17,088 nucleotides of DNA, taken from the IMG/VR virus record IMGVR_UViG_2690316115_000021; one strand, 5' to 3'. This document shows positions 9,001 through 12,000 of this stretch, piece after piece. Source of the DNA: a virus. Lineage: Duplodnaviria > Heunggongvirae > Uroviricota > Caudoviricetes. The first letter of the stretch is position 1. Each line of letters begins with the position of its first letter. Made by a program: the position numbers.

Positions 9001-12000
9001 CCCAGCGACGCATTCCGGTAATTCTGGTTGGCGTTAAACTCCCTTTCCTGCAGTGCATAATTACGGTCGTCGACTTTGGCTCTGTAATCAAAGTTCCGCT
9101 GATCAACGTCTTTATTATGTTCAAACTGCGACTGTGCAAATTCAAAATCGCGCTCGTTATTTTTCTGTTGTTGAGCAAGCTGTGCTTCTCGCAAACCAAG
9201 TTCCTTACGACGGGTCATTGCCTGGTCAACCGTGCTGAATCCGGCAAGTAAACCCTGTGCAAATCCGCTCATTCACCACTCCTTAAAACAAAGAACCAGC
9301 AATACCACCTATGACAGCACCAATAGCCGCACCGGGGAGACCACCAACAGCAGCGCCCATAGCTGCACCCGTACCAATTCCCGTGCCGATATTCTGTTTG
9401 TTCTGCGCTTTCTGTTGCGCCGCCATCTGTTTGTTCGCGGCCTCAATTTCTTCACGTCGTCTGTCGGCATCACTTATTCCCTGTAATACCTCACGCCTCG
9501 ACTGATTCGCAATATCCAGTAAACCGTATCCCATATTGCCCCCTTACGCTGACACCAGTTTTCCGCCAACACTCAGTTGTTGTCTTGCAGGTGCAGAAGC
9601 CCCCGTCAGTATGTTCATCTGGCGATCCTGCTCTGCTTCACGGATACCATTTTTCGCGCCAGCAATTGCCAGAGCATTACGCAAACCCAGTGTGTTACTG
9701 TTGGGATTATCCGGGCGGCTTACCCCGTATCTCGCCATCTGGTTATCCTGCGCCATCTGCGCTGTACGGAGACTGGAAGTGGCAAGGCCGCCCACCCGGG
9801 CAAGCTGGGCACTCATCAGGCTGTTGTTCTCGCCAAGGTCAGCCAGCCTTGCCACGCGGGGCAAATATCTGGTTCGCCAGTCGTCGTATTGTTGGCGTGT
9901 CAGCGCTGCTGACGTCTGCCAGTCACCCTGTGGACGGGCAGCTCCGGTATAACCGTATCTCGCAAGTGTTTCGTATTTACCGTACTCCATAATCACAGTC
10001 TCCAGTTCTGAGCCTGATGCTGAATGGCATTAGCGCCGGTGCCAGGTGTTTTAGCACCGCCACTTCCTCCGCTACCGCCAGCCTTATACATCGCATATGC
10101 ACCTACCGCACCCAAACCAGCGCCAACAAGAGAGGCTCGCCCCTGCTGTTTCGTAAACGCAGCCTGTGCGTCCGATTTAGCTTTTACCAGACTGCTGTCT
10201 GCCAGCGAGTTAAAACTCTGTAACGCATCCGCCTTTTGACCAGAACCGAGAGCAGCAACATCCTGTAGCCCGGCAACATACTTATCTGCCTGCGATACCT
10301 GCCCCCGTGTGGTTGTGTCAATCTGCCCGGTTACCTGATCACTCTGGTTCGCATTCATTACCGCGTTAAAGCGACCACTGGACGGGTCAACACCGGACTG
10401 AGCAAGATTACCCGCCAGCTCCTTCCGTGCTTCGCCAAACTGTTTCTGATACCCCAGATTTGTGGTGCCAGCAATATTGTCGTACTGCTGCTCACTGTTC
10501 AGGTCATCGACCTTTTCCATGAAGTTATCTTCAGCCGGGCGGAGGATTTTTTGATAATCCTGCCACCCTTTCCAGGCCACTTCTTCCTGTGCTATTTGCG
10601 CTGCTGTTGGTTTTACTTTGGTATCACCACCGCCTTTTTTTCCGCCCATTATGGCCCCCTGGATAACAAAAAACCCTGCCGGGGCAGGGTCAGAATGTGA
10701 ATTGCAATTGGTTTACACACGATAATGAATACAGTGGCAGTCAGACCGCTATCCTGAACACCATGAAGCCATCCTCATCATCCGGCATTCGCTCAAAGCC
10801 CAGACGTTTTCCCAGCCGGATAAATCCCCGCCTTGCCGTGTGGAATTCAGCCCAGCGTCCGCCAGCCAGACGGGTTAATGTCTTCACCTCCGGCAGATAA
10901 CGCTCAACACCGGCACTCCCCGTACACACACCCAGCAACACCAGAACATAAGGGATACCGTCGTCACTGAGCACAGAACGCAGCACCAGAAAACCATCCG
11001 GTGCCTCAAAGCAAAACGCCTGCTTTTTAAGGCAGGCGTCTTTAACTTCATTCATAAATTCAGGGTTGCGGGAATTTCTCACAACACGCTGCATATACCG
11101 GAAAATTGTGTCGTCCATTCTCTCACCAGAAACGGGTGCCATATCGGCTGAACCTCAGCAACCAGTTGACGGGGACTTTCGTCCCCGTCGCGGTTTTCCT
11201 ACTGCTTACACTGTAAGAACGCCGCAAACTCCGCTCCCCACAAATTCAGCCGGAACTCACACAACGAGCCGTGTAACATCCAGATGGTGAAGATTACCGT
11301 CATACAAATTGTGACGGTGATGAGCGATTTTTGCGACATAGCGCTTGCCTCCTGAGTGGAGAGGCGCTAACCTTCTACTTGCTTAAGGTATGATGGTTAG
11401 GGCCTCGGGTTAAACAAAATGTTTGACTCGGGGCCTTTCCACATCAGGCCTTCAGGTTCTCCCTCCAGCCATCAGCCGAAAGGCACCCGCGCATAATCTA
11501 CGATTTTTGCCCTGCACGGGCAACAAAAAACCCGCCATCACAGCGGGTTATGACATGTTGTCGGGTATTACTCAGAATTTCAGGCCAATGCCTGCAAATA
11601 AACCATCAGTTTTCCAGTCGCCAGAGCCTGAGCTTTCATAAGTGACGTCCATAGTAACACTTTCATTGAAGTTAAATTGCGCGCCGACAGACCATGCAAT
11701 AGACGTTTTTTTGGTGCTGTTACTTTCAGAAAAACTACCGGCACCATGATTAAGATTGTCGTTAATTTTCAAGTCAGTGGTGACTTTTGCAACCCCCATA
11801 CCAGCCATTGCATACACACTGAGGTATTCGTTAAACCGCCACGAAGGACCGGATAGTAGACTCCAGTAATTAGCCCTGATATCAGTTCTCGCTGAAGCTG
11901 CCGGTTTTTTTACCTCTCGTGATGGATCGGAAGGCTTAACATCAATAAATGCCTGCGCATTAGTCATGGAGCGCGCCCATGTAAAAGAGGCTATAACACC

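Follow-up and report, generated by a model that had tools for sequence, protein, structure and literature searches.

A probable hok/sok-type toxin-antitoxin cassette, apparently without mok, beside lom in a 933W-like prophage of Escherichia coli

We analyzed a 17,088-nucleotide (nt) stretch of Caudoviricetes DNA (IMG/VR record IMGVR_UViG_2690316115_000021; hereafter the window), in which a sequence-only reading had proposed a hok/sok-type type I toxin-antitoxin (TA) locus. Our analysis makes it very likely that the window contains a complete and probably functional cassette of this type, about 390 bp long, which a 933W-like (Sepvirinae) prophage of E. coli carries as a moron alongside lom. The window matches the chromosome of E. 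coli ML35 exactly and shares 99.6% identity with the tail/accessory region of many 933W-like (Sepvirinae) phages that convert their hosts to Shiga toxin (Stx) production. What follows sets out the toxin peptide, the RNA elements around it, the predicted antisense RNA, the conservation and spread of the cassette, and the readings that compete with this one.

The toxin peptide and its public record

The 46-amino-acid peptide encoded at the locus is a member of the Hok/Gef family. Its open reading frame (ORF), at 11339..11199 on the minus strand, encodes MSQKSLITVTICMTVIFTIWMLHGSLCEFRLNLWGAEFAAFLQCKQ and is preceded, 8 nt before the AUG, by the Shine-Dalgarno (SD) sequence AGGAGG (11353..11348); the sequence-only reading had described an ORF of this length with a perfect SD. 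That reading had named alignment with Pfam family PF01848 (HOK_GEF) as the decisive test, and the alignment scored 33.2 bits against a gathering cutoff of 22 (E = 4e-8, residues 8-44). The peptide also matched PHROG 251 ('MokW-like host killing', moron category) with E = 2.8e-24, and it has the Hok family residues: C12-x-T14 in an N-terminal hydrophobic helix, L26-C27-E28 beyond the helix, the distal E37, and C44 near the C terminus. Their counterparts in the published Hok logo are C16, T18, L30, C31, E32, E41 and position 48. The best NCBIfam match was the HokA equivalog NF007290, which scored 38.4 bits, below its cutoff of 89; the peptide is therefore HokA-like rather than an orthologue of HokA.

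The ORF has been called before. In RefSeq, the Prokaryotic Genome Annotation Pipeline (PGAP) places WP_000078907.1, a 'Hok/Gef family protein', at exactly the same position in ML35 and in many other genomes, and some phage records annotate the 46-amino-acid ORF too. In the GenBank record of 933W from 1999 (AF125520), the gap between lom and L0129 is empty. The earlier description of the locus as unannotated thus holds for the gene track on which it was based and for the 1999 record, but not for RefSeq.

The peptide itself has also been catalogued. An identical peptide is entry 72_1589 (plasmid LRP157) in Table S2 of the preprint by Escalera-Maurer et al. (bioRxiv 10.1101/2025.08.07.668861), where 72_1621 is the variant from P2 prophages that we found at four of our loci (L011-L014). 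Both entries belong to a high-abundance cluster and both were cloned under an arabinose promoter for toxicity assays. Toxicity was reported for 42 of the 45 homologues tested, and the three entries named as non-toxic do not include 72_1589. The same preprint covered coding sequences only, with mok, Sok and mRNA structure explicitly outside its analysis.

The hok locus is accordingly not new: it has a RefSeq annotation, Pfam and PHROGs both include its family, and the exact peptide has been catalogued and assayed. Because annotation, catalogue entry and toxicity assay already exist, the finding is in itself an ordinary one, and the enrichment of hok in prophages is likewise already known. What remains of interest is that mok is apparently absent, that a 390-bp unit moves as a block among unrelated phages, and that Stx phages carry it together with hokW.

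RNA elements of the cassette

The elements that we read from the locus are listed here by window coordinates, in the order of the hok transcript and then of the opposite strand.

11523..11495, minus strand: predicted hok promoter, with -35 TTGCCC (11523..11518), a 17-nt spacer and -10 TAGATT (11500..11495).
11488..11130, minus strand: predicted core of the hok mRNA, about 359 nt, with its 5' end at G11488.
11488..11472, minus strand: tac-like 5' element GGGUGCCUUUCGGCUGA, mRNA nt 1-17.
11406..11392, minus strand: apparent vestige of the mok initiation region, with a GAGGC box (11406..11402) and, 8 nt after GAGG, AUC-AUA-CCU-UAA where the canonical mok AUG sits.
11368..11340, minus strand: anti-SD/SD hairpin, AGCGC-C-UCUCC / GGAGG-CAA-GCGCU, which encloses the SD AGGAGG.
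11339..11199, minus strand: hok coding sequence, 46 amino acids plus stop, HokA-like, cluster 72 of Escalera-Maurer et al.
11189..11168, minus strand: 3' stem-loop GACGGGGAC-GAAA-GUCCCCGUC, 9 bp, between the stop codon and fbi.
11151..11134, minus strand: fbi-like 3' element, GGCACCC with UCAGCCGA (full form UCAGCCGAUAUGGCACCC), mRNA nt 338-355, complementary to the 5' end.
11345..11373, plus strand: predicted sok promoter, with -35 TTGCCT (11345-11350), a 17-nt spacer and -10 TAACCT (11368-11373).
11381..11440, plus strand: predicted Sok RNA, about 57-62 nt, starting at G 11381.

The start of hok transcription was placed 7 nt after the -10, at G11488, the first base of GGGUGCC, both from the sequence and by homology with R1, hokB, hokC and hokW. 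Position 1 of the alignment to Rfam RF01794 falls on the same base, and similarity among cassettes in unrelated prophage settings starts exactly at the -35 TTGCC. Counted from +1, the SD occupies 136-141, the AUG is at 150, the stop codon at 288-290, the 9-bp stem-loop at 300-321, and the fbi complement at 338-355 (fbi core 349-355). At gathering thresholds, Rfam had no match to the window locus. In a permissive scan, the full RF01794 (sok) model, positions 1-157, aligned to 11488..11328 on the hok strand with 42.1 bits (E = 4e-8). RF01794 on the hok strand corresponds to the hok mRNA leader, and a full-length match at a sub-gathering score therefore points to a divergent member.

Folding agrees with this layout. 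The minimum free energy (MFE) of 11488..11130 is -158.5 kcal/mol, compared with -116 +/- 5 for shuffled sequences (z -7.9). In the MFE structure, nt 1-7 and 10-17 are paired with nt 338-355 (15 bp), a hairpin encloses the SD, and the AUG region is base-paired to distal coding sequence. The anti-SD/SD hairpin is modest when taken alone (-13.1 kcal/mol, z -2.5; 4 of 200 shuffled sequences were as stable), and the 3' stem-loop reaches -19.7 kcal/mol (z -5.1). The latter has the same position as the R1 stem-loop, in which mutations destabilize the truncated hok mRNA; by analogy, it is the predicted stop point of 3' exonucleolytic trimming.

The sequence-only reading had seen an inverted repeat in the leader that can sequester the SD and a strong stem-loop after the ORF, and both are present. 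Its interpretation, a hok-type mRNA fold-back, is supported by an RNA anatomy colinear with R1 hok/sok, hokB, hokC and hokW. The interval that it gave, 11165-11523, holds both hairpins but misses the fold-back element fbi at 11151..11134, since in the MFE structure the 5' end pairs with nt 338-355.

These results bear on one alternative, namely that the intergenic spacer holds an ORF and hairpins that arose by chance. Nothing but the ORF's small size speaks for it. The significant Pfam, PHROG and Rfam matches, hundreds of conserved copies and structural z-scores from -5 to -8 speak against it, and we consider it refuted by the family matches, with a residual probability that is practically nil.

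A predicted Sok antisense RNA

To compare the cassette with its relatives, copies were collected from E. coli, from species-representative genomes and from IMG/VR; this gave 95 copies, 67 of them distinct, from which 52 full-length distinct mRNAs were aligned. The counts below refer to these sets.

On the plus strand, opposite the hok leader, the sequence predicts a short RNA with a single-stranded 5' tail of about 10-18 nt, an 18-bp hairpin (11399..11437) and a CCUUUCC end. Its hairpin folds with -31.8 kcal/mol (z -6.7), and the RNA is close in sequence, size and position to K-12 sokB and sokC, and in sequence and position to 933W sokW. The hexamers and spacing of its promoter, TTGCCT-17-TAACCT, are identical to those of the promoter upstream of the annotated sokW in 933W. 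In the work of Takada et al. (2021, PMC8621323), primer YO-421 replaces TAACCT; the construct so deprived of its sok promoter unmasked the toxicity of HokW. The -10 reads TAACCT in 51 of the 52 aligned cassettes, the -35 begins with TTG in all of them and the spacer is 17 or 18 nt, while all 32 distinct Sok candidates adopt the same hairpin fold. An antisense transcript had been expected on the plus strand near 11340-11420, and the predicted promoter (11345-11373) and RNA (about 11381-11440) fall roughly there. At the level of sequence, the leader thus appears to contain a cis-encoded antisense Sok gene.

TATGAT at 11389-11394 looks like a better -10 for sok but was rejected: no -35 accompanies it, a Sok made from it would lack the 5' tail, and its position is not homologous to the sokB, sokC and sokW promoters.

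The 5' tails of the 32 distinct Sok candidates (window about 11381-11399, plus strand) are highly variable in both sequence and length. Such variability would be expected if the recognition region diversifies against cross-talk between co-resident hok/sok loci.

Two mutually exclusive predicted folds are conserved among cassettes

Conservation of the fold was assessed by asking in what fraction of alignment cells the named partners can pair. For the closed structure this fraction is 91.7%; shifting the 3' partners by 1-3 columns lowers it to 38-48%. Helix 1 of the tac-fbi pairing is paired in 97.2% of cells and helix 2 in 85.4% (about 40% when slid), and the rare changes in helix 1 are G-U wobbles. 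The outer helix of the SD hairpin is paired in 99.6% of cells. The 3' stem-loop is paired in 99.1%, and includes two compensatory pairs (AU in 28 and GC in 23 cassettes; AU in 23, CG in 21 and GC in 5).

RNAalifold prefers an alternative 5' fold, in which the 5' end pairs with GGAAAGG (nt 47-55), and GCCUC and GGUUAG pair with the upstream GAGGC...CCUAAC. This open structure is pairable in 98.4% of cells, with 98.1% for tac-GGAAAGG and 98.5% for GCCUC-GAGGC. In the R1 model, a closed full-length mRNA is set against an open truncated mRNA; two folds that exclude each other and are equally conserved are therefore what this model predicts.

The leader appears to lack mok

In R1, translation of hok requires translation of the overlapping mok, a 70-codon frame that starts about 57 nt before hok and uses the GAGG box as its SD. 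Three-frame translation of the leader in the window revealed no ORF that enters the hok start in any frame, and an in-frame UAG ten codons upstream of the hok AUG is conserved. When leaders are aligned, an ATG stands 8-9 nt after the GAGGC box in R1, hokB, hokC, hokW and intact hokA, where the window has AUC. In 41 of the 67 distinct cassettes no upstream ORF extends as far as the hok initiation region; the upstream ORFs of the remaining cassettes start inside tac, have no SD and are not conserved. Judging from these alignments, we conclude that the cassette represents a cluster-72-type subfamily that apparently has no mok, a feature on which the sequence-only reading was silent. With no mok leader ORF, hok would be translated from its own SD, which is strong, and this is probably the case. 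A literature search found neither a described mok-less hok subfamily nor transcripts from this locus, although an older description may exist. Such a subfamily would offer a simple natural test case for the control of hok by Sok without a leader ORF.

We weighed this conclusion against canonical mok coupling, in which a short or non-AUG upstream ORF, for example one starting at the AUC at 11394, would serve as mok and be the true target of Sok. The GAGGC box, which includes the mok SD of R1, is kept at the same spot, the AUC stands 8 nt after GAGG and so has the spacing of the R1 mok AUG, and some cassettes have longer upstream ORFs. However, the AUC frame ends after four codons, 44 nt before the hok AUG, whereas translation of R1 mok must reach the hok SD; the AUC region is not conserved among cassettes; and the longer upstream ORFs are the ones described above, which begin within tac without an SD and are missing from the same 41 cassettes. 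Coupling of this kind is, in our estimate, very improbable.

The cassette behaves as a mobile unit

Of 5,426 complete E. coli genomes searched with megablast, 1,551 gave matches. Those at 80-85% identity span, almost without exception, positions 35-409 of the query, that is window 11134-11508, and end at query position 35 (11134). The alignment-based search of species-representative genomes gave 6 loci, three of which are probable contaminants, and the search of IMG/VR gave 80.

Among the copies that were fetched, the same 46-amino-acid gene occurs in three prophage settings. In 933W-like prophages it lies between lom and the homologue of L0129; in P2-like prophages, one of which is on a plasmid, between ogr and the chromosome junction at the prophage end; and in a lambda-like setting between J and a tail-fibre gene. 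Aligned with one another, the copies are similar from the hok -35 (TTGCC) to GGCACCC and diverge completely just after it, with unrelated flanks, so that fbi marks the 3' border of the conserved cassette. As similarity begins at the -35 and ends at GGCACCC, the conserved mobile unit extends from the promoter to fbi and measures about 390 bp (11523..11134).

The P2-like copies (L007 and L011-L014) adjoin tRNA genes, ihfA or serS, depending on the strain. In the lambda-like copy (L010) the cassette stands in place of lom after J, and the moron sites of the three phage types thus share cargo. Near-identical enterobacterial cassettes also turned up in assemblies of a Planococcaceae metagenome-assembled genome, Vagococcus sp. 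and Moraxella osloensis (L015, L017 and L020), and are most likely assembly contamination.

A model for the cassette and its alternatives

On the pattern of the known systems, we propose that a weak promoter would yield a stable mRNA of about 360 nt or more, encoding a 46-amino-acid HokA-like toxin of the inner membrane. The full-length mRNA would be closed by pairing of tac (nt 1-17) with fbi (nt 338-355), with the SD held in a hairpin with the anti-SD box and the AUG paired to the distal coding region. Slow 3' trimming to the stem-loop at 11189..11168 would remove fbi, whereupon the 5' end would re-pair with GGAAAGG (nt 47-55) and the anti-SD box with the upstream GAGGC/CCUAAC, loosening the SD. 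A short and unstable Sok, made from TTGCCT-17-TAACCT on the plus strand, would pair with leader nt ~49-108 of the processed mRNA and block it, either through RNase III cleavage or by returning the anti-SD box to the SD, or both. Should Sok no longer be made, because the prophage is lost or induced or an infecting phage shuts transcription off, Hok would be produced and would depolarize or lyse the cell. The sequence-only reading had suggested prophage stabilization or a part in abortive infection. Judging from its relatives, the cassette could serve prophage addiction, could exclude superinfecting phages in the way that R1 hok/sok excludes T4, or could assist lysis as hokW does.

Several observations weigh against a complete and functional cassette. 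The RF01794 score lies below gathering (42.1 versus 59), both the hok and the sok promoter fall below the threshold of a simple sigma-70 consensus scan, and within the cassette no intrinsic terminator follows fbi. By the same count the R1 sok promoter is also below the consensus scan, and a weak score is expected for the hok promoter. Apart from the 3' stem-loop, the helices are nearly invariant and the sequences fall into two main clades, so that the support from the 52 cassettes is one of conservation rather than proof by covariation. Accessibility of the SD and AUG, computed for full-length, 3'-truncated and Sok-masked forms of 12 divergent copies, moved mostly in the expected direction but by small shifts; in the window copy the probability that the SD is unpaired is 0.18 for the full-length, 0.26 for the truncated and 0.18 for the Sok-masked form. 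At the native locus we infer the transcripts, their ends, the 3' processing, the action of Sok and the biological role, and the toxicity of the exact peptide is taken from the literature, where it concerns the cloned peptide rather than the native locus. Finally, according to a preprint that cites them, Pedersen and Gerdes judged the chromosomal hok loci of K-12 to be inactive; a resident copy therefore need not be functional.

This last point leads to the strongest competing explanation, a regulatory relic, in which the toxin ORF is intact and the cassette is silent or unregulated in the lysogen, passenger DNA without a role for the phage. As summarized in the preprint, chromosomal hokA, hokB and hokC could not mediate post-segregational killing; mok, which R1 requires for hok translation, is absent here; and the distribution of variable sites over codon positions 1/2/3 (29/15/33) is not clearly that of purifying selection. 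Against a relic, the ORF is intact in nearly all of the 67 distinct cassettes, and three phage backgrounds, whose flanks are unrelated, share conserved tac, fbi, sok -10, Sok hairpin and 3' stem-loop elements. Furthermore, the cassette has a strong SD of its own, and only three of the peptides assayed alongside its own were not toxic. We regard a relic as unlikely and retain the functional cassette as the preferred reading.

The functional cassette can be extended, tentatively, to all cluster-72 cassettes. They might form a mok-less branch of hok/sok with direct translation from the SD, control by Sok through three-way competition and/or RNase III decay, an autonomous life as a moron, and Sok tails diversified against hokW. 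Sok would then bind 28-87 nt upstream of the SD and would not act by blocking a leader ORF. In the off state the anti-SD GCCUC would be paired with the hok SD, in the on state with the upstream GAGGC/CCUAAC, which Sok can mask, and the 390-bp unit would move among Sepvirinae, P2-like and lambda-like prophages. Taken as a whole, this combination is possible, though we would sooner doubt it than rely on it.

Neighboring genes and downstream signals

All genes of the window lie on the minus strand, in the order tail-tip fibre, two small membrane proteins, lom (11572-12309), the hok locus, conserved hypothetical genes and a giant ORF. An intrinsic terminator stands at the end of lom (11549..11529). 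The giant ORF (window 1-7938, minus strand) encodes at least 2,645 amino acids and runs off the window end; it is a homologue of 933W L0134 (8.4 kb), and PGAP describes it as an LPD38 domain-containing protein, flagged as frameshifted in ML35.

The first terminator-like site downstream of the cassette is a hairpin, GACGCCUGCC-UUAAAAA-GCAGGCGU, followed by UUUUGCUUU, at 11040..11014 on the minus strand with a tail to about 11008 (-19.9 kcal/mol, z -5.7). This strong hairpin lies within a conserved 133-amino-acid ORF of phrog_610 and reads as a terminator on the plus strand too. The hok transcript may end here, or the site may attenuate transcription that continues into the genes beyond.

The annotated ATG of this downstream ORF (11142, minus strand) overlaps the GGCACCC of fbi. 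As the PHROG 610 profile covers the ORF only from residue 9 onward, translation probably starts at Met9 (11118), which is preceded by GGUGAGAG. Coupling of the two genes through the overlap of ATG and fbi was considered and set aside, since the start of the profile at residue 9 makes the overlap a likely annotation artefact.

On the plus strand, the hok 3' stem-loop followed by CGGTTTTCC (11167-11199) scores as a terminator-like site, which could stop antisense transcription that enters the cassette from downstream.

Comparison with known systems

The cassette was compared with the R1-type hok/sok plasmid copy, hokB/sokB and hokC/sokC of K-12, hokW/sokW of 933W, and hokA. It is colinear with all of them, and the shared order is promoter, 5' GGGUGCC (tac), Sok-target stem, GAGGC box, anti-SD/SD hairpin, hok, 3' stem-loop and fbi.

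R1 hok/sok (parB) has the same order of elements, a sok promoter that overlaps the hok SD region on the opposite strand, and a toxin of the same Pfam family. Counted from its +1, the hok AUG of R1 is at 169, the stem-loop at 337-354 and fbi at 384-391. The two differ in that R1 has mok, that its toxin has 52 amino acids rather than 46, and that the mRNA core of the window is about 36 nt shorter. Moreover, R1 has a terminator at +397-429, whereas here none directly follows fbi, and the R1 locus is on a plasmid while the window locus is found in prophages.

The closest characterized protein is HokA (yiaZ) of K-12, with 46% identity and shared MxQK...W-M...SLCE...AAFL-CK motifs; both cysteines are directly encoded in both. 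Unlike the window locus, hokA has an annotated mokA, it belongs to 60%-identity cluster 93 rather than 72 (Escalera-Maurer et al.), and in K-12 it is disrupted by IS150. For cluster 72 itself, entry 72_1589 is the same 46-amino-acid peptide; the preprint covers the coding sequence, and here the RNA anatomy was compared too.

The hokW-mokW-sokW locus of 933W and Sakai prophage 5 (Sp5) occurs in the same kind of phage and has identical sok promoter hexamers and spacing. The hokW-sokW pair of Sp5 has been shown to work as a type I TA system, with which induced cells lyse sooner and release twice as much phage (Takada et al. 2021, PMC8621323). HokW has 51 amino acids, is HokC/HokD-like and lies near attR at 933W 58460-58734, with mokW annotated. 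Identity of the window locus with hokW-sokW was rejected: HokW is a different peptide (51 amino acids, MKQQKAM...) at another position, and neither the hokW primers nor the HokW motif occur in the window. 933W carries both loci, one in the lom-L0129 gap at about 45.4-45.9 kb (45428-45856, unannotated) and hokW about 13 kb away near attR. Phages of the 933W type thus carry two distinct hok loci, a point that Takada et al. do not discuss, and of the two only hokW has been studied; the phenotypes of hokW deletions may be buffered by the locus next to lom.

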